NCBI GenBank assembly: GCA_963796275.1
Contig: CAWCKY010000007.1
Coordinates: 320,001-384,000, forward strand
Origin: an uncultured Acidobacteriota bacterium
GTDB taxonomy: Bacteria; Acidobacteriota; Blastocatellia; RBC074
Reading direction: 5' to 3'
Length of the DNA: 64,000 nucleotides
Shown: piece by piece, positions 39,372 to 51,615 of the stretch
How positions within the stretch are numbered: the stretch's first letter is position 1
Layout: every line of letters begins with the position of its first letter
Position numbers and translations under genes: made by a program
Notes under the pieces: generated by a model
What the model saw: the letters and a program-made list of their open reading frames with translations, nothing else
Told to the model about the DNA's origin: nothing
Database searches by the model: none

Positions 39372-41198
39372 TTATTGCGGCCCGGGGGTAGCGGTAGCGA
39401 TTGGCAGCGGCTTACTTTCACTCACCCCGCTACCCTCTTTTACAATATGAAGCTGATTGATGGCGACATTAGCTAACTTATCGACCTTGCCGCTGGGCCA
39501 TTCAATATCGACCCGCTCGATCCTTTCGACCAGTCCCAGTCCGAACGTGACGGGCAGTTCGCTCTGCGAGCAGTAGCTCGATCCGCTCCGCACCATCTGC
39601 CACTGCTTTGCGCCTCCAACGGGATAGATCGTGATCTTCGCGCCGATGCCGTCACGGTTCGATTTAGCACCTATCGTTCTGAATTTGACGAAGCGGTTTT
39701 GATTGCCGCCATCGTTGCGCAGGAGATATGCCGGGCCGCCGTTGGTTGTGACCAGGATGTCCGGGTCGCCATCGTTATCGTAATCGCCATAAGCGGCACC
39801 GCGCGCAACGATCGCCCGGGCGAATGGTTTGCCGGCTTTACGCGTGACTTCGGTGAATTTCCGTTTGCCCTCGTTGCGGAATATTTGCGGGCGCTGCGCG
39901 TAGGTGATCTTCGGCTGCACTTTATTGATATCGTCGGCTACGTGGCCGTTGGCCATGAAAATATCCGGCAGCCCATCGAGATTGTAATCGAAGAAGAATG
40001 TGGCGAAGGTCAGCGAGAGCTGCGTATCGCGGCCGACATTCGATGACGGCGCTTCGTCGATGAAGAGGCCCTGGCCCTGGTTGTGGAAGATGGCGAGCAT
40101 TTCGTTGGAGAAGTTGCCGACTATTATGCTCGGATTGCCCGATCCGTCGATATCTGCAGCGTCTGTTCCCATCCCGCCCCGCGCTTTGCCTTCTTCGCTG
40201 AATGCGACTCCTGAGGTTACTGCTTCGTCGCTGAATGTCCCGTTGCCGTTGTTCTTCCAGAGTTTGTTCGGCTGCGTGTCGTTGGCGACGAATATATCCG
40301 GCCAGCCATCGCGGTTGTAATCGAGGATGGTGACACCCAGAGATTTACCGGGCGGGTCTTCGATCATCCCAGCTTTTTCCGTCACGTCGACAAATTTGCC
40401 GCCGGCATTATGATAGAGGCGGGAGTTCTGGCCTTTGTACTTTTCGGGAGTGCAGTAGCTCTTGTTCGTGCCGTCGAGTGCGCAAAATGCGTCAGTTTCC
40501 GGCGACCATTCGACATAGTTGCAGAGGTATAAATCCAGTTTTCCGTCTTTGTCATAATCGACAAATGCAGCCGACGATGAAAAATATGGGGGGCCGGCCA
40601 ATCCGGTCTTCGTCGTCGAATCGGAGAATTTGCCGTTGCCGAGGTTGCGAAACAGACGATTCTGTCCGAGCGCCGTAACGAATAGATCATCCCAGCCGTC
40701 GTTGTCGTAATCGCCTACTGCTACGCCCTGTCCATATATCTGTTTCGCCAGACCCGACTGAGATGTGACATCGCTGAAAGTTCCGTTTTGATTATTGTGA
40801 TAGAGCGCCATGAACGAACGGCGTTTTTTCGGAGCTTCTTCAAAATCCATACTGTTAATCAGAAGGATGTCCTGCCAGCCGTCATTGTCATAGTCGATGA
40901 AGGCGCAGCCGGAGCCGTTGGTCTCGGGTAGATATTTTTTACCGAACGCTCCGTTGTTGTGGCGGAAACGAATGCCGGCCTGCTGTGTGACATCGGTGAA
41001 TTCGATGGGCGTAAATTTTGCCGGGTCCAGCGGTGTTGGCGATGGTGAGGACGATGCCGGCGGTGTCGAACTGGCTACTGTCTGCGGCGGCGTCGCATTT
41101 GATTGCGCATTATTCGAGTGTTGTTGGTGGCAGGCAGTAGTGAGTATTAACAAAAAGATAGGGCAGAGCGAAAAATAACGTACAACCGTATGCATCAT
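39372..41198 (-). CDS. CRTAC1 family (FG-GAP + ASPIC/UnbV) probable lipoprotein
   Basis: Lipobox-like LTTAC; repeated DYDNDGW.D motifs; C-terminal SNRDGIGA...SSYCSQS...FGLG...WPSG. Confidence 0.88.
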   Translation of the reverse strand: MMHTVVRYFSLCPIFLLILTTACHQQHSNNAQSNATPPQTVASSTPPASSSPSPTPLDPAKFTPIEFTDVTQQAGIRFRHNNGAFGKKYLPETNGSGCAFIDYDNDGWQDILLINSMDFEEAPKKRRSFMALYHNNQNGTFSDVTSQSGLAKQIYGQGVAVGDYDNDGWDDLFVTALGQNRLFRNLGNGKFSDSTTKTGLAGPPYFSSSAAFVDYDKDGKLDLYLCNYVEWSPETDAFCALDGTNKSYCTPEKYKGQNSRLYHNAGGKFVDVTEKAGMIEDPPGKSLGVTILDYNRDGWPDIFVANDTQPNKLWKNNGNGTFSDEAVTSGVAFSEEGKARGGMGTDAADIDGSGNPSIIVGNFSNEMLAIFHNQGQGLFIDEAPSSNVGRDTQLSLTFATFFFDYNLDGLPDIFMANGHVADDINKVQPKITYAQRPQIFRNEGKRKFTEVTRKAGKPFARAIVARGAAYGDYDNDGDPDILVTTNGGPAYLLRNDGGNQNRFVKFRTIGAKSNRDGIGAKITIYPVGGAKQWQMVRSGSSYCSQSELPVTFGLGLVERIERVDIEWPSGKVDKLANVAINQLHIVKEGSGVSESKPLPIATATPGPQ

Positions 41199-41286
41199 AA
41201 ATTGTGTTATCGAGGTTAATCGAGAGACCTAGATAACTGAAGACAGTGCAATTTAAAGTTGGTTATTATCAACAGATTCTGATTGA

Positions 41287-41441
41287 CTCCGGAGGAGCCC
41301 GATGTATATAGCCTTCGATTACCCAAGTCTCACAAGCTCCGGAGGAGCGATATACAGACATTCATTCATTCATATGTCGCTCCTGCTGAGCTTGTGAGAT
41401 GTGGGAGAACGAGTTCTATAAACATCCCGCGCCGATGGCGC
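41287..41441. repeat. REP-like palindromic element
   Basis: CTCCGGAGGAG...GATGTATATAG; AAGCTCCGGAGGAGCGATAT / ATGTCGCTCCTGCTGAGCTT; CTATAAACATC inverse of the left part. Confidence 0.65.
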
Positions 41442-41542
41442 TCAGGACCGATATCGTTGATTCAATGATCTTTTATTTGCACACTCTTCAGATAACTATA
41501 ACTCAATACATCCAACCGTCTGAATGCTCCTGGCCCATTCTC

Positions 41543-42559
41543 TTATTGAATGGAGATGTTTTTGATCGACAGAGGAATGAATCTTCGATCGATCAGGTCC
41601 TTCATTTCGATCGGTCTCTCCAGGATGCCCGCCTTGAGCGCCATATCGTGAATCTGCTGCAACTCTTCATCGGTCGGCGTCAGCATTCGATAGCTTACAC
41701 GGTCAGGAGGTTGCGTCAGCACATATCGTACGACTTTTTCATCCTGGCGAAAATAGGGGGCAGCGACCCTGGCTGCTTCGATACGATGTGTCTCCGCCCA
41801 CTCGCCGCTCTCGGCAATGCTGCGCACCAGGTCGCGCATTAGATCAGGGCGCTCATTTATCAGCTTCTCGGTGGCAACCAGAACGCAGGAGATGAACCTC
41901 GGCCAGATGTCCTTGGCGTGATAGAGCACGCGACCGCTGCCGTCGAGTTCCGCCTTGGCGGCGTGAGGCTCGCCGATAAAGTATGCGTCGATGGCTCTGG
42001 CTGCCAGCGCGCCCGGCATATCGGGCGGCGGCATCTCGACGAACCTGATCTCATCTTCTTTTACGCCCTGGTTTTCCATCAGCTTGCGAATGACGAGATT
42101 TTGATTGCTGTATTTCGAGGGTATGGCAAATGTCTTCCCGCGCAGATCGCGCAGGTCTTTGGCCGGAAGGTCCTTACGCACGATAACTGTGGATCCGTCG
42201 CGATGGCCCAGATACAGTATCTTCACGGGCACGCCCTGTTCGCGCAGTTTCATGGCGAGCGGCGCGATCATAAATGTCGCCTGCAGTCGACCACCCTTAA
42301 TCGACTCGACGATCGTGGGGAAATCGGTAAATCTCATCGACTCGAACCGAGTCGTCGCGCTGGTGCGGGTCGCAAAATCCGTCACCGGACACGTGAGATG
42401 TCAGGTGACCGGCAGGAAACCCACGCTGAGTTGCTCGCGCGGACTGTCGACCCTGCTCGATGTTTGTTCTACCTGCCACGGTTTGTACCGTAGCACCCCC
42501 AATACGATGATTGCCAGGATCGTGCCAATGACGATGCGTATAATCGGTGAATGAAACAT
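41543..42559 (-). CDS. SsuA/TauA/NrtA-like ABC substrate-binding protein with in-frame TGA at 42401-42403, probable selenocysteine
   Basis: ORFs 42401..42604 and 41543..42385 share one frame, separated only by TGA: LSVGFLPVT*HLTCPVTDF; joined product is 338 aa from ATG 42559 with an N-terminal TM/signal segment. Confidence 0.8.
42371..42393 (-). promoter_or_regulatory. Candidate bacterial SECIS hairpin
   Basis: After UGA: CAUCUCA-CGU-GUCCG-[GUGA]-CGGAU-UUU-GCG; stem with a GU-starting apical loop beginning at nt 16 after the UGA. Confidence 0.55.
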
Positions 42560-42561
42560 AA

Positions 42562-42655
42562 ATAATTGATTATTGATAATTGATAATTGATAGTTGAAAT
42601 ACACTGTGGCAACAATTTAACCGAATCATCAATCATCCATTATCCATTATCAATT
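42562..42655 (+). repeat. Heptamer-armed hairpin element, copy 2
   Basis: (AATTGAT)n arms; core AGTTGAAATACACTGTGGCAACAATTTAACCGAATC; right arm encodes the ATPase C-terminus ELIMDNG*. Confidence 0.8.
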
Positions 42656-43370
42656 CTCTTTCGAGACCCAGTTCTGTCAATATTCGATGTACGGCTTCGA
42701 CGACTTCCGGATGGGTCAGGTTGCGGGGTCGCGGTTCAAACAACCGCATCTCGCTGCGGACCTTCGCCGGACGTTCGGATAAAACGATGACTCGGTCGGC
42801 CAGTTGCGCGGCCTCTTCGATGTCGTGCGTCACGAGCACCACGGTGCGCGGGTGCTCGTCCAGCATACGCGCAAGTTCCTGGCGCATGCGCAACCGCGTC
42901 AGGTAATCGAGCGCGGAGAATGGTTCGTCGAGCAGCAGGACGTCCGTGTCGCCCGCCAATGCGCGCGCGATCTCGACTCTCTGCCGCATTCCGCCAGAGA
43001 GTTTGTGCGGGTGATGATTTTCGAAACCTTCGAGCCTGATCAATGCGATGAACTCGCTCAACTGGCGTTCGATTTCACGCTCATCCTTCAGATGTCTGAG
43101 ACCCAGCGCGATGTTTTCACTTACAGTCAGCCAGGGGAAAAGCCCGTCATTTTGATAGACCATCCGCATTCTTCCGGTGCGCGTGAGCTTGCCCGAGGAT
43201 GGATCGTCGAAGCCGGAGAGCAGGTTGAGCAGGGTCGTTTTGCCGCAGCCCGACGGCCCGACGACCGCGACGAATTCACCCCGCGCGATCTCGATATCAA
43301 GCGGCAGGATCACTTCGACTGCGCCGAAACTTCGCGTTACCTTATCCAATTGAAAGATGATATCTGTCAT
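42633..43370 (-). CDS. SsuB/TauB-like ABC ATP-binding protein
   Basis: GPSGCGKTT, LSGGMRQR, LLDEPFSALD, VTHDIEEA. Confidence 0.92.
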   Translation of the reverse strand: MTDIIFQLDKVTRSFGAVEVILPLDIEIARGEFVAVVGPSGCGKTTLLNLLSGFDDPSSGKLTRTGRMRMVYQNDGLFPWLTVSENIALGLRHLKDEREIERQLSEFIALIRLEGFENHHPHKLSGGMRQRVEIARALAGDTDVLLLDEPFSALDYLTRLRMRQELARMLDEHPRTVVLVTHDIEEAAQLADRVIVLSERPAKVRSEMRLFEPRPRNLTHPEVVEAVHRILTELGLERELIMDNG

Positions 43371-43378
43371 CTCATTTA

Positions 43379-44153
43379 TTATCTCTCATATCCCCATCGC
43401 ACGCTCTCGATCTTCATCAATTGTACGAGAAGTCGGTCGATCACCACACCGATGATACCGATGACGATCATTCCGACGACGAGCAGGTCCATCCTCAGTC
43501 CATTGCGCGCATCCCAGATGGCGAATCCCAGCCCATCGCGGCCTGCTATCATCTCGGCCGCGACCACAACGAGCCACGATAGTCCGGCGGTAACCCGCAA
43601 GGTGGTGATCACCTGCGGCGATATGGCGGGCAACGTCACCTGAATGAGCAACTCGAAGCCCTCGATACCGTAATCCCGCGCTACCCGGAAATAGACATTC
43701 GGGATGCTCGCGACTGCCGAGATGGTGGCCAGGACGATCGGGAAGAATGAGCGCCATGAAGATCAGGAAGATGGCGGGTTTATCGCCGATGCCGAACCAC
43801 AGGATCGCGAACGGAATCCAGGCGAGAGGCGAGAGGTTACGAAAAAAATTGATCGCCGGAAGCATCGCAGTCCGCGCGCGCGCGCGCTGGCCGAGCCACA
43901 AGCCAAGAGGAATGCCGGCGCCGGTAGCGAGAGCGAACCCTGCGGTCACTCGGAAGAGCGAAGCGACCACGTCATTGTACAGCCGCCCGCTCCCAACCTC
44001 TTCGCGGAATCCCTTCGCCACCGAGATCGGTGACGGAAAGATCGAGTCGGGAAAGAGGCGAAGCCAGGCCAACAGCCACCAGATTGCAATAATGATCGAA
44101 GCCACCAGAAGTGGTAACAACCGAGTTCTATCGGATACTGTAGTAGAAGTCAT
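43379..44153 (-). CDS. SsuC/TauC-like ABC permease with a 1-bp frameshift near 43751
   Basis: SPLAWIPFAILWFGIG in the first frame, VVVAAEMIAG..GLGF in the second; removing one base at ATG GCG C TCA TTC restores IFMASFFPIVLAT. Confidence 0.82.
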
Positions 44154-46252: not shown

Positions 46253-49200
46253 ATGATCACGAACAAATTCCAGATTTCAATCCTCAAATTTGAGATAACA
46301 CTCATCCTGATACTAGCCGTCACACTGGCAGGTTGTAACGGCAGGGGAAACCTTCCCGATCCCTCCTCGAGAGAATATCGCGATGCCGTCTCGGCCTTCT
46401 ATGTCGGTTTGGGCGCTTTGCAGGCGACCGACGATATACGCGCTAAGCAACGGCTCACGCGATTCACCGAGCTCGCACCGGGGGAGCCGGCCGGTTGGGT
46501 AAATCTGGGTGTACTTGCGCTGAGGCAGCAGGAGTTCGACGCGGCATATGAAAACCTCGAAAAGGCGCGCGCGATAGTCCCCGATGACAGCCGCATCGAG
46601 GGGATGCTCGGCCTGGTCGAAACGAAGCGCGGCAGATTTGCCGAAGCGATCGCGCATCTGCGCAAGGCGGTCGAGCTCGACCAGAAGAATTTGAAGGCGA
46701 TCTATGGGCTCGCGCAGGAGATCGAGCGGCAGGGCGCTGAGAACAGCGAAGTGGAAGTGCAGAATTTGATCGAGAAGATCCTACAAGTCCAGCCTGACAA
46801 TCTGGCGGCGCAGCTTGAATCGATTCGCATTGCCGCGAAACGCGGCGACGCAGAAACGGCTAAGCGAATCGTCGGGGGCATCGGCCAGAAGGCATCGGAC
46901 TGGCCACCGGAGATCGTTGCACAATTGAATGCATTGCAGGCGGCTGTCAATGGCCCGAATGTGCGGGCCGCCGCAACCCAGGTGGCTTTTTTGCGAAATG
47001 TTCTGGTGCGCTTACCCGATTATCGCCAAAGTCTGGCGGCGATCAGAAATCCGACCGAAGAGACGGGCGAACCGTTTGATAGGTTTTTGAAGTTGGCCTC
47101 GCCGAAGCTCGAGGCTGCCCCGCCGGATGAGGGATTAGCTTTCAACGCAGAGCCGATTGATGCCGGTGAAGGGAAGTGGGCCATGGTCGGAGCGATAACG
47201 CTCGACAGCGATGGCCCGCCTGTGGCCTTCACCGTCGATCAGCGAAATGTGCGAATAGGCGGCCAGTCGCTCACATTTCCGACCGGCGGAGAGATGATTA
47301 ATTCGAATGCGGTGGCGGGGATCGATTACGACTACGATTTCAAAACCGACCTGGCGGCGGCTGGCAGAGGCGGTTTCAAGCTCTACCGTCAGGAATCCCG
47401 CGATAAATTTATCGATGTTACGGCCCGGATGGGTTTGCCGCCGGCGCTGACGAACGCCGCTTATGACGGCGTATGGGCGGCGGATATCGACCTCGATGGA
47501 GATCTCGATATCGTGCTCGGTGCTGTCGCCGGCCAGCCGCCTGTGTTCAGGAATAACGGCGACGGAACGTTCAAGGAGTTGCGGCCATTCGCCGGGAGCG
47601 AAGGGCTGCGTGGCTTCGTCTATGCGGACTTTGATGGCGACGGCGATCCGGACGCGGCTCTGCTCGATGCCAATGCAAGATTGAAATTTTTCAGCAATGA
47701 ACGGCTCGGAGTTTTTCGCGAACGGGCCTTGCCGCCAAACATCGAGTCGATCAGCGCCCTTGACGTGGCTGACATAAACGGCGATGGCGTTCTAGATCTG
47801 CTTCTGCTGGATTTCAACCTGGCGGTGAAGCGTATCTCCGACAAAGGCGCGGGTGAAGGATGGGAGATAGTTGATGTCTTTGGGAGGCAAGCGGATGGCG
47901 CCACCGTGCCTCCGTCGCCGGGTTCGGTGAAGCTAGTCTCGGGCGATTTCGATAACAACGGATTGCTGGACCTGGCATTCGGCGGATTTATCTGGCTCAA
48001 CGGATCACCAGGAAAGAACCCGCGCCGGATCGATACGGGAAATACGACCGCCACTTCCTCGGCGGATCTAACCGGAGACGGGCGTCTCGATTTGCTGGCG
48101 ATGAATGCGGAGCGACGGCCGGTCAGACTCATCAACCGGGGCACTAAGGACTACCACTGGCAAGTCATCCGCCCGCGCGCCGCCAAATCCACAGGCGACC
48201 AGCGCATCAACTCATTCGGCATCGGTGGGGAGATCGAAATCCGCGCCGGACTGCTCTTCCAGAAACAGGTCATCGATTCTCCTCTGGTTCATTTCGGTTT
48301 GGGCGAGCAAACGCAGACTGACGTTGCGCGCTTCATCTGGCCGAACGGTTCCATTCAGGGCGAATTCGAATTGAAAGCCGATCAGGCGGTGCTGGCCGAG
48401 CAGCGATTGAAGGGCTCGTGTCCATGGCTCTTCGCCTGGAATGGCAGGTCGATGGAGTTCGTCAAGGACTGCGCGCCCTGGAGTCCGGCATTGGGTCTGA
48501 ACATAAACGCGCAGGTTACCGCCGGCATACAACAGACTGAAGAATGGATGAAGATTCGCGGCGACCAGCTCGCGCCACGCGATGGGTATTACGATCTGCG
48601 CGTCACCGCGGAATTGTGGGAGACCTACTATATCGATCATTATTCGCTCGTTGTGGTAGATCATCCGGCAGAAACTGAAATTTTCGCCGATGAGCGTTTC
48701 TCCATCCCTCCGCCCGAATTGAAACTCTACGCGACATCCAGACCCAGACCTTTCAGCCGGGCCGTCGATGACAACGGGCAGGATGTGACCGCCGTGGTCG
48801 GTGCATTGGACGAGAAATACCTCGATACATTCGGGCGCGGGCGCTATCAGGGGCTAACGCGCGATCACTACGTCGAACTCGCATTGCCCGATGAGGCTCC
48901 GCGCGCGGGCCGCCTTTGGTTGATCGCGCATGGTTTCGTGCATCCGACCGATACCACCGTCAATATGGCGATGAGCCAGCCCTACGATTACGTCCCCCCG
49001 AAAGGGCTGAGCCTCGAAGCGCCCGATGGCAAGGGCGGGTGGCGCGTCGTCGACCCCAACATCGGCTTTCCCGCGGGCAAGAAGAAGACGATGCTCATCG
49101 ATTTGACGAAAGTCATGACGCTCGACTCGCCGCGCCGCATTCGCCTGCGAACGAATATGGAGGTCTACTGGGATAAGCTGGAATGGGCGGAGGGCCTGCC

Positions 49201-49717
49201 GGAAGCGCAATTCAAAACGCAACGGTTCAATGCCGAAACGGCAGAGTTGCGTTTTCGCGGATACTCGGTGGTGGCGAGGGCCGACGATTCATCGCCTGAG
49301 TTGCCCGATTACAACCGGCTGGAATTCACCGGGCAGAAGTGGCGCGATATGATCGGTTACTTTACTCGTTACGGGGATATCCGCGAGTTGCTCGAAAAAG
49401 TCGATGACCGGATGGTATTCACCAATGCAGGCGATGAAGTGAGATTGCGCTTCAAAGCAGTGGCTGATCCGCCTGCCGGCTGGACGCGCGATTACGTGAT
49501 GATCGGTAACGGCTGGATCAAAGATGGTGATTACAATTCGACTTTCTCGAAGACGGTTCTGCCATTGCCCGATGCGAAGATGCGGGAATACACTAAACCT
49601 CCCTCGCGTTTGGAAGATGATCCGGTCTATCAGCGCCACGCACGCGACTGGCAGGAGTTTCATACACGATATGTGTCGCCAGATCGGTTCCGGAACGCGA
49701 TGAAACCATTAGATTAA
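46253..49717 (+). CDS. TPR + FG-GAP/CRTAC1 + ASPIC-UnbV large probable lipoprotein
   Basis: Lipobox LAGC; N-terminal TPRs; DxDxDGDxD repeats; HFGLG...WPNG; C-terminal extension starting KGSCPWLFAWNG. Confidence 0.85.
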   Translation: MITNKFQISILKFEITLILILAVTLAGCNGRGNLPDPSSREYRDAVSAFYVGLGALQATDDIRAKQRLTRFTELAPGEPAGWVNLGVLALRQQEFDAAYENLEKARAIVPDDSRIEGMLGLVETKRGRFAEAIAHLRKAVELDQKNLKAIYGLAQEIERQGAENSEVEVQNLIEKILQVQPDNLAAQLESIRIAAKRGDAETAKRIVGGIGQKASDWPPEIVAQLNALQAAVNGPNVRAAATQVAFLRNVLVRLPDYRQSLAAIRNPTEETGEPFDRFLKLASPKLEAAPPDEGLAFNAEPIDAGEGKWAMVGAITLDSDGPPVAFTVDQRNVRIGGQSLTFPTGGEMINSNAVAGIDYDYDFKTDLAAAGRGGFKLYRQESRDKFIDVTARMGLPPALTNAAYDGVWAADIDLDGDLDIVLGAVAGQPPVFRNNGDGTFKELRPFAGSEGLRGFVYADFDGDGDPDAALLDANARLKFFSNERLGVFRERALPPNIESISALDVADINGDGVLDLLLLDFNLAVKRISDKGAGEGWEIVDVFGRQADGATVPPSPGSVKLVSGDFDNNGLLDLAFGGFIWLNGSPGKNPRRIDTGNTTATSSADLTGDGRLDLLAMNAERRPVRLINRGTKDYHWQVIRPRAAKSTGDQRINSFGIGGEIEIRAGLLFQKQVIDSPLVHFGLGEQTQTDVARFIWPNGSIQGEFELKADQAVLAEQRLKGSCPWLFAWNGRSMEFVKDCAPWSPALGLNINAQVTAGIQQTEEWMKIRGDQLAPRDGYYDLRVTAELWETYYIDHYSLVVVDHPAETEIFADERFSIPPPELKLYATSRPRPFSRAVDDNGQDVTAVVGALDEKYLDTFGRGRYQGLTRDHYVELALPDEAPRAGRLWLIAHGFVHPTDTTVNMAMSQPYDYVPPKGLSLEAPDGKGGWRVVDPNIGFPAGKKKTMLIDLTKVMTLDSPRRIRLRTNMEVYWDKLEWAEGLPEAQFKTQRFNAETAELRFRGYSVVARADDSSPELPDYNRLEFTGQKWRDMIGYFTRYGDIRELLEKVDDRMVFTNAGDEVRLRFKAVADPPAGWTRDYVMIGNGWIKDGDYNSTFSKTVLPLPDAKMREYTKPPSRLEDDPVYQRHARDWQEFHTRYVSPDRFRNAMKPLD

Positions 49718-49818: not shown

Positions 49819-51615
49819 ATGAATAATCGCATCACACGAATCGTACTGATAATTTTCTTTATCGCGCTGCTGGCCACGCCGCTCATCATCAAGCAGCTGA
49901 ACGCGCGTAACGAAATAGCCCGGTCTTCAATTGATCCGGCCACCGCGCTGTCTCGCTACGGGTTTTATATGGAAGAGTCGGCGAAATCCGCCGGCATAGA
50001 GTTTAATCATCAGGCGCCGACCTTCGATGCGAAGCTCAGTCATATAATGACGCAGGTCGCAGTCGTCGGCGCGGCCGTCTCGGTGGTGGATTTCGATCGT
50101 GATGGCTGGAACGACTTTTACGTCACCAACAGCGGCGAAGGCAGCAGGAACGCGCTTTATCGCAACCTGGGCAAAGGCGTATTCAAAGATGTCGCGGGAG
50201 AAGCCGGGGTGGCCGAGCTGAACAGCCGCGAGCTGGGGGTTTCGATGGGCGCGGTGTGGGGTGATTACGATAACGATGGATACGAGGACCTGTTCTTATA
50301 CCGCTGGGGGCGGCCCGAGTTGTTTCACAACGCCGAGGGGAAGCGGTTTACGCGAGTGACGGAGGCGGCTGGATTTCCCCAATGGATCAACGCCGGCACC
50401 GCCATCTGGTTCGATTACGACCGCGACGGAAAGCTCGATCTGTTCATCGGCGGCTACTATTCCGAAAAGGTAGACCTCTGGCGGCTCACGGACACCAAAA
50501 TGATGCCCGAGAGCTTCGAGTATGCGAACAACGGCGGTCGCAAATATCTTTACCGCAATCTGGGCGGGGGGAAGTTTGAAGAAGTGGGAGAGAAGTTAGG
50601 CCTCAAATCGACACGCTGGTCGTTCGCGGCGGTCGCGGCCGATCTGCGGGGCACGGGTTATCCCGATCTCTTCGTCGCCAACGATTACGGCGTCTCTGAA
50701 CTGTTCTTCAACGACGGCGGAAAGCGATTTCGCGAAGTGGGAGGAGCGACGGGAGTAGGTTATTCGCCGAAGAGCGGAATGAATGCGAGCGTGGGTGATG
50801 TTTTGAACCGCGGCCATTTTGCCATCTATGTTTCGAACATCAGCGAAGAGGGAATACTGCTGCAGGGCAACAATCTCTGGGTACCGCGTGAGGGAACTTC
50901 GGGCGACGATATCAAATACGACAACCTGGCGCGTGATATGGGCGTCGAGCTGGGGAAATGGAGTTTCGGCGCGCAATTTGGCGATTTGAATAATGACGGC
51001 AAGCTCGACCTCTATTTGGTCAACGGGTATGTTTCGGCTGACCGCGACAACACCTACTGGTACGATTTCTCGAAAGTAGCCGGCGGTAACAAATCTATTA
51101 TCTCCGATGCGAAGAACTGGCCGCCGATGGATGGCCGGAGCCTCGCCGGTTACCAGCAGAAGCGCGTGTGGATCAACGACGGTGCGGGAAAATTCAACGA
51201 GGTAGCGCAGGCCGTAGGCGTGACCGATGTATACGATGGACGCTCGGTTGCGCTGGCGGATTTCGGCAATCGCGGCGTGCTCGATGCCGTGACAGCGAAC
51301 CAGCGCGGGCCGGTGCTCTATTATCGCAACACGGTCGATCCTGGAAATAATTGGATAGACCTCGAGCTTGAAGGAACGACCAGCAACCGGAGCGCCATTG
51401 GCGCCCAGGTGCGCGTTTTTTGGAATGGGCAGACGCAGATTCAGGAAGTCGCAGGCGGCAGCGGGTTCTGCGCGCAGAATCAACGCCGATTACATTTCGG
51501 CCTGGGCAAGGGGGCGCAGCTCGAGAAGGTTGAGATTCGCTGGCCGTCGGGTAAAATACAGACTCTTTCCGCCCTTGAGCTAAACAAAGTCCATCGTTTG
51601 AAGGAGCCGGTGTAG
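49819..51615 (+). CDS. CRTAC1 family / UnbV-like protein
   Basis: DFDRDGW, GDYDNDG, PESFEYANNGG, WSFGAQFGDLNNDG; C-terminal ASPIC-UnbV (SNRSAIGA...GFCAQN...HFGLG...WPSG). Confidence 0.88.
   Translation: MNNRITRIVLIIFFIALLATPLIIKQLNARNEIARSSIDPATALSRYGFYMEESAKSAGIEFNHQAPTFDAKLSHIMTQVAVVGAAVSVVDFDRDGWNDFYVTNSGEGSRNALYRNLGKGVFKDVAGEAGVAELNSRELGVSMGAVWGDYDNDGYEDLFLYRWGRPELFHNAEGKRFTRVTEAAGFPQWINAGTAIWFDYDRDGKLDLFIGGYYSEKVDLWRLTDTKMMPESFEYANNGGRKYLYRNLGGGKFEEVGEKLGLKSTRWSFAAVAADLRGTGYPDLFVANDYGVSELFFNDGGKRFREVGGATGVGYSPKSGMNASVGDVLNRGHFAIYVSNISEEGILLQGNNLWVPREGTSGDDIKYDNLARDMGVELGKWSFGAQFGDLNNDGKLDLYLVNGYVSADRDNTYWYDFSKVAGGNKSIISDAKNWPPMDGRSLAGYQQKRVWINDGAGKFNEVAQAVGVTDVYDGRSVALADFGNRGVLDAVTANQRGPVLYYRNTVDPGNNWIDLELEGTTSNRSAIGAQVRVFWNGQTQIQEVAGGSGFCAQNQRRLHFGLGKGAQLEKVEIRWPSGKIQTLSALELNKVHRLKEPV

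Follow-up and report, generated by a model that had tools for sequence, protein, structure and literature searches.

The window analysed here is a 64,000-nt stretch (positions 320,001–384,000) of contig CAWCKY010000007.1 in assembly GCA_963796275.1, from an uncultured Acidobacteriota bacterium (Blastocatellia), and it carries on its minus strand a gene for a substrate-binding protein (SBP) of an ATP-binding cassette (ABC) transporter. The gene consisted of one frame of 338 codons (42559–41543), which began with an ATG at 42559 and ended with a TAA at 41545–41543. The sole in-frame break was a TGA at 42403–42401 (codon 53; TCA on the plus strand). The surrounding DNA, GGT TTC CTG CCG GTC ACC TGA CAT CTC ACG TGT CCG GTG, encodes GFLPVT-U-HLTCPV and agreed exactly, on the minus strand, with the stretch quoted in an earlier interpretation of this DNA (the sequence-only reading), which had proposed one selenoprotein gene hidden as two open reading frames (ORFs). 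Under translation table 11 the gene was indeed split into two ORFs, one at 42604–42401 (67 aa, or 52 aa from the ATG at 42559) and one of 280 aa from an internal GTG at 42385. The gene callers started the database products at this internal valine, which gave the 280-aa proteins P0034, P0101, and P0115 without codon 53, and two database proteins 97–98% identical to the window protein were gene calls from the same valine. The TGA at codon 53 is very probably a genuine selenocysteine (Sec) codon in an intact gene, and the central claim of the sequence-only reading, an SBP with a U-x-x-x-C motif, was supported by the homologue column, the RNA structure, and the machinery tests.

The ATPase and permease genes were located directly upstream of the SBP gene, so that the order on the minus strand was permease, ATPase, and binding protein. 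The ATP-binding subunit (42633–43370) matched Pfam ABC_tran with 109.2 bits and ended in an ordinary TGA stop at 42635–42633. The permease (43379–44153) matched BPD_transp_1 on its 3' part and was split by one extra base near 43751. The locus is a predicted three-gene importer of the NitT/TauT type.

The protein translated with TGA as Sec matched Pfam NMT1_2 (PF13379) with 97.9 bits against a cut-off of 24.7, and NMT1 also matched. The AlphaFold2 model, with a pLDDT of 94.2, had an N-terminal helix (residues 5–24) joined by a linker to a binding-protein fold of two lobes. Residue 53 was located at the C-terminal end of β-strand 1 (residues 42–48), just before the helix of residues 56–63. The export signal and the first strand were thus both supplied by the part upstream of the TGA, as had been claimed. 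The hydrophobic helix (42488–42547), assigned by AlphaFold2 and DSSP and kept in the aligned homologues, is probably an uncleaved signal anchor. In other subfamilies this helix had basic residues on its N side, which suggests an N-in, C-out anchor with the domain facing the periplasm.

Homologues had a cysteine or a TGA at the column of codon 53, in line with what the sequence-only reading had expected. Cysteine occupied this column (PVT-C-HLTCPV) in 17/17 full-length homologues with 78–86% identity (20-sequence alignment A1). An orthologue was present in 23 of the 87 genomes of the bacterial family of the window, and its codon at the column was TGA in 9 and TGC or TGT in 14. The nine TGA-type orthologues came from five genera, showed 76–86% protein identity, and had otherwise open frames; a 50%-identical paralogue had TGT. 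In a phylum sample of 401 genomes, 21 had a match, including a second subfamily (group B) with 43–46% identity and the motif YIPVT-[C/U]-HLACPVTDY. Among 15 loci of group B, the same column held TGA in 5, from genomes of three other families, and TGY in 10.

One-genome-per-species contigs were then scanned with a degenerate IUPAC DNA pattern for V-T-U-H-L-[T/A]-C-P-V-T-D, and the Sec-type pattern matched at least 119 further genome records, 80 of which were examined in detail. All 80 loci had at least 50 open codons upstream of the TGA, and 75 had at least 272 open codons downstream; the other five ran off the end of the locus. By subfamily, 17 were of the window type, 49 of the second type (B), and 14 of a third type (C, PVTDWINK). 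According to the record titles, the carriers were mostly Acidobacteriota (Thermoanaerobaculia, Blastocatellia, and Holophagae), with some Myxococcota, among them cultured strains of Myxococcus and Archangium, and a small number of Planctomycetota, Armatimonadota, and others. Because the same column held TGA in 9/23 orthologues and in these further records, the TGA at codon 53 is more than chance.

Two loci titled 'uncultured Heliobacteriaceae' (L161 and L163) were identical in the Sec-codon region (70 nt compared) to acidobacterial loci (L032; L034/L036). These labels look wrong, and record titles need care. In a sister subfamily from Verrucomicrobiota and Planctomycetota, with the motif PVTCHLTCPVT, the codon was TGC or TGT in 80/80 loci. 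The idea that truncated database proteins with M/V-T-D starts mark Sec in other phyla was rejected, since the subfamily of protein P0170 had Cys in 80/80 loci.

The read contigs lend weak support to the TGA. No change at 42401–42403 was among the differences listed for soil run X1 (99% alike) or for the ~90% alike contigs of a second run, and hence neither TGC, TGT, nor TGG, any of which the sequence-only reading had named as refuting, was among those differences.

The RNA that follows the UGA was conserved beyond the needs of the protein. In 15-codon windows beginning 0, 5, and 10 codons past the U, the nine Sec-type genes had pairwise synonymous differences of 0.13, 0.08, and 0.17, compared with 0.29–0.61 elsewhere along the same genes. 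In 13 Cys-type genes, a count that leaves out one partial gene and the paralogue, the same windows gave 0.39–0.40. From the UGA to +65, 11/66 positions varied among the nine Sec-type genes and 32/66 among 14 Cys-type genes, while in the Sec-type genes the 66-nt stretches on either side had 47/66 and 31/66 variable positions. This low variation and the synonymous collapse marked out a conserved RNA element (42338–42400; +3 to +65), a probable selenocysteine insertion sequence (SECIS), which was composed of a 7-nt spacer and two hairpins. Hairpin 1 (42356–42393; +10 to +47), derived by RNAalifold, had the stacked stems CGUGY/RCRCG and GGUS/SACC, a top helix of 3–4 bp, and a variable apical loop. 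Hairpin 2 (42338–42354; +49 to +65), CGACUCG-GUU-CGAGUCG, had a 7-bp stem closed by a GUU triloop and was invariant in the Sec-type genes of the subfamily.

The two-hairpin fold was found in 9/9 Sec-type genes, with energies of −24.4 to −30.6 kcal/mol (nt +3 to +68), and in only 3/14 Cys-type genes (L018, L028, and L035), so that a conserved structure in the TGA-type genes, anticipated by the sequence-only reading, was present. Hairpin 1 formed 12/12 pairs in seven of the nine Sec-type genes and 11/12 in the other two. All seven pairs of hairpin 2 were formed in 9/9 Sec-type genes versus 2/14 Cys-type genes. Covariation was assessed on 21 distinct Sec-type sequences, including 17 same-subfamily genes from other records. 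Pair 20–38 of hairpin 1 was G-C in 8 and C-G in 12 of them, its partners being the third position of a Val codon and an Arg codon that switched from CGC to AGG or CGG. Pair 17–41 was C-G once, and pair 23–35 of the top helix switched from G-C to C-G in three sequences. Therefore, the structure of hairpin 1 and not its sequence appears to be under selection. The sequence of hairpin 2 was invariant, each pair being kept in 20–21 of the 21 sequences.

A smaller hairpin, GUCCG-GUGA-CGGAU (42377–42390; +13 to +26), had been pointed out by the sequence-only reading as a candidate SECIS. It was present in the window gene, at −5.9 kcal/mol and with its loop 16 nt after the codon, and it overlapped and competed with hairpin 1. 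However, it was not the conserved element, since all five pairs were formed in only 1/21 sequences; elsewhere among the Sec-type genes, U14 was replaced by C and further pairs failed to form.

The group C Sec-type subfamily (PVT-U-HLTCPVTDWINK; L141–L211, for example L159, L197, and L206) had its own two-hairpin structure downstream of the codon. A long hairpin at about +14 to +56 had the outer stem CCCCG.../...CGGGG and an inner CCGACUGG/CCAGUCGG stem, and the second hairpin was GGGUUC-UAY-GAACCC. This suggests that SECIS solutions arose independently within one protein family.

The bacterial SECIS model calls for a G at one of the first two loop positions and for a loop that starts 16–37 nt after the UGA. 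The element of the window gene resembled the canonical SECIS of the E. coli fdhF type in a stem-loop that begins about 10 nt after the UGA and in a GU-containing triloop on a G-C-rich stem. It differed in that the GUU hairpin was located behind a 38-nt covarying hairpin, beyond the range of the model. Other Sec genes of the same genome also had GU-containing loops, as in hairpin 2 (GUU, +56). The candidate SECIS of selD was a CCCAG-GUU-CUGGG hairpin after the UGA, with its G-GUU-C loop at +36, and the element of fdhA had an A-GUC-U loop at +22. Hairpin 1 covaried and occupied the place expected for a bacterial SECIS. Because hairpin 2 was invariant with a GUU triloop on G-C, like the selD loop, and the fdhA loop was GUC, a bipartite arrangement is favoured. 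There is about an even chance that hairpin 2 binds SelB while hairpin 1 acts as a structured spacer that brings hairpin 2 near the ribosome. When the genome was scanned for a TGA with a GGUU[CU] hairpin behind it, 22 matches were obtained, which were essentially noise save the window gene; selD was missed because of the stem threshold.

The machinery for Sec was complete in the genome, where selA, selB, selC, and selD, which the sequence-only reading had proposed to look for, were all present. Profile searches found selA (559.8 bits), selB (335.9 bits), and selD (358.7 bits), each over its curated cut-off, and tRNA-Sec (selC) was identified by ARAGORN and by Rfam with 62.6 bits against a threshold of 47. 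The selD gene (G000:C7:302299–303228), ~17 kb before the start of the window, itself contained Sec, with an in-frame TGA in the motif CAGUASK. The gene for the alpha subunit of formate dehydrogenase, fdhA, was also of the Sec type, with one in-frame TGA. Among genomes with a TGA-type SBP gene, selA was found in 14/14 tested. It was also found in 13/15 Cys-type genomes elsewhere in the phylum, and the two selA-negative genomes, G294 and G184 (both 99% complete), had Cys at the column. The Sec machinery is thus necessary but non-discriminating for Sec-type genes. TGA was otherwise an ordinary stop, as at the end of the adjacent ATPase gene, and 7 of 24 SBP genes ended in it.

From these sequence patterns, we infer that selenium is inserted at codon 53. 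The UGA would be decoded as Sec by the SelA/SelB/SelC/SelD system of the genome, and decoding would be directed by the covarying hairpin and the invariant GUU hairpin downstream. The product would be a membrane-anchored, probably extracytoplasmic SBP of an importer made of permease, ATPase, and SBP.

Several observations weigh against this interpretation. The loop of hairpin 1 started at +25 with A-U in the best fold, and the GUU loop of hairpin 2 started at +56, 53 nt after the codon; neither agrees with the SECIS model given above. No Rfam SECIS family matched the region, and the sub-threshold miRNA-like matches reflected long intergenic hairpins. A common fold was sought in group B (43–46% identity) and none was convincing, with alifold energies of −2.1 to −2.5 kcal/mol and, for 49 sequences, of −0.01 kcal/mol. 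The presence of selA in 82/87 family genomes failed to separate the Sec type from the Cys type. The permease of the same operon was frameshifted, and the transporter may be inactive in this strain. Finally, the metal-site role discussed below was derived from a sequence alignment and a published model.

Simple decay, in which the TGA is a nonsense mutation and the SBP gene a pseudogene, had been raised as a caveat by the sequence-only reading. The 1-nt insertion in the permease and the break of the public gene calls (P0034, P0101, and P0115) at the TGA would agree with it. However, it was contradicted by the recurrence of the same TGA in orthologues and in the further records with frames open on both sides, and the synonymous sites after the TGA were extra-constrained rather than relaxed. 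The column was Cys in all other homologues examined, and the permease had a single lesion and was otherwise open, so that decay is exceedingly unlikely. It is hardly credible that the locus holds two separate genes, one for a short membrane peptide terminated by the TGA and one for a cytoplasmic SsuA-like protein of 280 aa initiated at the GTG. Although the gene callers yielded exactly this 280-aa product and the GTG is located 6 codons after the TGA, the product lacks β-strand 1 and the GFLPVT(C/U)HLTCP motif, the GTG encodes the valine of the conserved PVTD, and in all 23 family orthologues and all 80 pattern loci the two parts shared one frame and were conserved together. Decoding of the UGA as Cys, Trp, or another residue by a suppressor or allo-tRNA is very improbable. 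The homologous residue is Cys, and the available part of one report describes unusual tRNAs of Acidobacteria as possible missense or nonsense suppressors (PMC5389517). However, the only tRNA with a UCA anticodon found by ARAGORN in the genome was tRNA-Sec, TGA served as the ordinary stop of the adjacent ATPase gene, selA was present in every carrier tested, and the conserved, covarying structure that immediately follows the codon is the hallmark of SelB-dependent decoding.

It is unlikely, but a more serious alternative, that the Sec gene is sound and the locus newly inactivated, a real permease frameshift leaving the binding protein without a working transporter. The frameshift noticed by the sequence-only reading was real in the assembly, where alignment with the DNA of the L017 orthologue gave one 1-nt gap, an extra base near 43751 in ATGGCGCTCATTC, and the contigs of relatives in runs X2, X4, and X5 did not have this base. 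On the other side, the assembly (7 contigs, 9.46 Mb) is inferred to be long-read and thus prone to single-base indels, and the only near-identical DNA, from run X1, left 43502–43776 uncovered, so that the base was unconfirmed. The two halves of the permease were otherwise open and conserved by three-frame translation. The extra base may have arisen very recently as a lesion or may be an error of the assembly; the TGA, which is shared and apparently ancestral, is not called into question in either case. Elsewhere in the assembly, the match to an EF-Tu/SelB-like GTPase region (G000:C6:1279509–1280234) was broken into three pieces and included one TGA. Either a second tuf-like copy is damaged here or the assembly has indel errors, and this bears on the trust placed in single-base frameshifts of this assembly.

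When the Sec protein was compared with solved structures, the top relative was 3UN6, the zinc-bound ligand-binding component of a Staphylococcus aureus ABC import system, both by sequence (E-value 2.4e-30) and by fold (Foldseek TM scores of 0.75/0.87, 24% identity). The next fold matches were SsuA, TauA, NrtA/CmpA, ThiY-like, and PqqT structures, and the matches to 3UN6, SsuA, TauA, and NrtA had a probability of 1.00. The window protein and 3UN6 share the framework G-x-L-P-[IV]-T-x, L-G-H-x-x-G, I-P-x-x-x-S, E-P, and C-V-L-V. They differ in that 3UN6 has a His in place of Sec53, with which it pairs in the HMMER alignment, and lacks the second Cys of U-x-x-x-C. Key columns were counted in 45 diverse relatives with 24–86% identity. 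Column 53 was Asp in 17 rows, Cys in 13, and His in 11, seven of the 13 Cys rows being the query or close relatives. Column 54 was His in 31 rows, column 119 His in 40, column 197 Glu in 40, and column 225 Cys in 37. Column 224 was Cys in 21, Ser in 13, and Asp in 8 and is Ser in the window protein. In the model, the key residues appear to be located at C-terminal strand ends, where such proteins bind ligand, and Sec in the U-H-L-T-C-P motif would be positioned at the mouth of the binding cleft.

Because 3UN6 is zinc-bound and the column of Asp, Cys, or His is located beside conserved His, Glu, and Cys residues, Sec53 is probably a metal- or ligand-site residue. The capture of a soft metal or of a covalent ligand proposed by the sequence-only reading fits this pattern, as far as the alignment can tell. 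Most likely, Sec53 would coordinate a thiophilic metal in the cleft as a first-shell ligand, helped by some of His54, Cys57, His119, and Cys225. This metal could itself be the cargo, or it could be a cofactor to which the cargo binds; Sec53 may instead be a ligand of the cargo directly. Sco proteins have a C-x-x-x-C-P copper motif, which U-x-x-x-C-P resembles; this resemblance may serve as a lead only and not as a test. A reading in which a Sec–Cys pair captures selenium or sulfur species covalently and the operon is a chalcogen importer found no support. A dedicated selenium importer was rejected, as the binding protein was present in 23/87 family genomes versus selA in 82/87.

SBPs of the 3UN6-like group adjoin clade B CO dehydrogenases, and in the available parts of two reports metal binding by two Cys and one or two His is proposed and the transported substrate is given as unknown (PMC6344411, PMC13592312). 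These parts report no Sec in the group. No CO dehydrogenase gene was found in the inspected neighbourhood of the window locus. The proteins SsuA, TauA, and NrtA (PDB 2X26, 6SSY, and 2G29) share with the window protein the fold class, the NitT/TauT family, and the BPD_transp_1 permease and ABC_tran ATPase, but the identity in the fold matches was only 13–20%. The window protein scored 130 bits with SsuA_fam (TIGR01728) against a cut-off of 163.5, and three Sec-type relatives scored 114–149 bits. To our knowledge, proteins of the SsuA/TauA/NrtA type bind oxyanions or sulfonates without Cys or Sec.

Sec is rare in transport proteins, and the SBP examples found in the available part of a selenoprotein review were SaoX (UxP), SaoB (CUxxT), and BtuF (CxxU) (PMC13188914). 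SaoX and SaoB belong to the SAO system and, according to the available part of its description, resemble the window protein as importer binding proteins with Sec or Cys in a predicted cleft that are split at the TGA by gene callers (bioRxiv 10.1101/2022.07.06.499078, Haft & Gwadz). SaoX is described there as related to SBPs of the SsuA/NMT1 type, and the structures 2X26 and 4NMY of that paper were also among the fold matches of the window protein. However, the U-H-L-T-C-P motif after strand 1 differs from the CU/CC motifs given there for SaoX and SaoB. The sequence-only reading had left open whether the protein belongs to a reported Sec-containing SBP family; it scored 64.6 bits with SaoX (NF040735) against a cut-off of 300 and had no match to SaoB (NF040727) at E-values up to 0.01. 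The nine-gene SAO neighbourhood (SaoL, SaoP, SaoE, and others) was also absent, the neighbours in the window being an FG-GAP/ASPIC protein and an amino-acid permease. The carriers of the window family, soil Acidobacteriota and Myxococcota, are presumably aerobic, whereas the SAO carriers are, in the available text, exclusively anaerobic (10.1101/2022.07.06.499078).

The available part of the review contains none of the terms NMT1, PF13379, PF09084, sulfonate, NitT, periplasmic, solute-binding, and UxxxC (PMC13188914). Such a binding protein is likewise absent from the main texts of the BSepDB and deep-Sep papers. When the window protein and one representative of every Sec-type subfamily were compared with NCBIfam, no model reached its cut-off. 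The family is therefore not listed in the current catalogues, as judged from the main texts and NCBIfam compared, and a prior description elsewhere is possible. It is very probably a new selenoprotein family among the Sec-containing ABC binding proteins and is widespread in soil Acidobacteriota and Myxococcota. It is rather doubtful that all parts of the fullest account hold jointly, namely an uncatalogued family in at least 119 species-level genomes, Sec as a first-shell ligand of a thiophilic metal, and a bipartite SECIS with a GUU loop at +56 outside the window of the search model.

In a protein tree of 27 rows, the Sec and Cys forms were interspersed. The best maximum-likelihood tree needed six Sec/Cys changes, at least two of which were forced by well-supported branches. 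The Cys-type gene L018 was nested among Sec-type genes and kept both hairpins. Because the Sec-type genes across the tree share one nearly identical RNA element, the simplest history would be an ancestral Sec gene, repeated conversions from Sec to Cys, and then decay of the hairpins.

With this family, Sec is placed at what is probably a metal site, in a protein exported by common soil bacteria. The natural Sec/Cys pairs, some of them near-identical genes, make a direct comparison of selenium and sulfur in ligand binding possible. The two-hairpin element, with one covarying and one invariant hairpin, provides a clean system for SelB recognition outside the enterobacterial model. The 280-aa truncation by gene callers loses the anchor, the first strand, and the key motif, and no NCBIfam model covers the family. 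The identity of the ligand bound by the 3UN6-like group as a whole also matters for the clade B CO dehydrogenases (PMC13592312).

Within about 8 kb of the transporter genes, the neighbours encoded FG-GAP/ASPIC proteins, an amidohydrolase, a lactonase-like protein, and an amino-acid permease. Three large FG-GAP/UnbV_ASPIC repeat proteins were located around the transporter (39372–41198, 46253–49717, and 49819–51615). The FG-GAP/ASPIC gene downstream of the SBP gene apparently kept its place in 3/5 related loci (L017, L020, and L022), as judged from large ORFs with similar sequence ends and not from a domain search.

The 345-nt gap between these two genes contained nested imperfect inverted repeats (41230–41498), with 61-nt arms (41294–41354 and 41373–41433, 75%) inside 29-nt arms (41230–41258 and 41470–41498, 79%). 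This region may be a palindromic element, an element resembling a miniature inverted-repeat transposable element, or a large terminator, and it may be what the sequence-only reading called a gene remnant. The spacer between the ATPase and SBP genes (42560–42660) was AT-rich and composed of heptamer-like repeats (ATAATTG/ATCCATT). It contained a 28-nt inverted repeat (42564–42591 and 42628–42655, 86% complementary) that overlapped the 3' end of the ATPase gene. The word depth spiked at 42501–42682 in runs X2, X4, and X5, which suggests a common low-complexity sequence, and run X1 had an extra ATCCATT unit at 42634.

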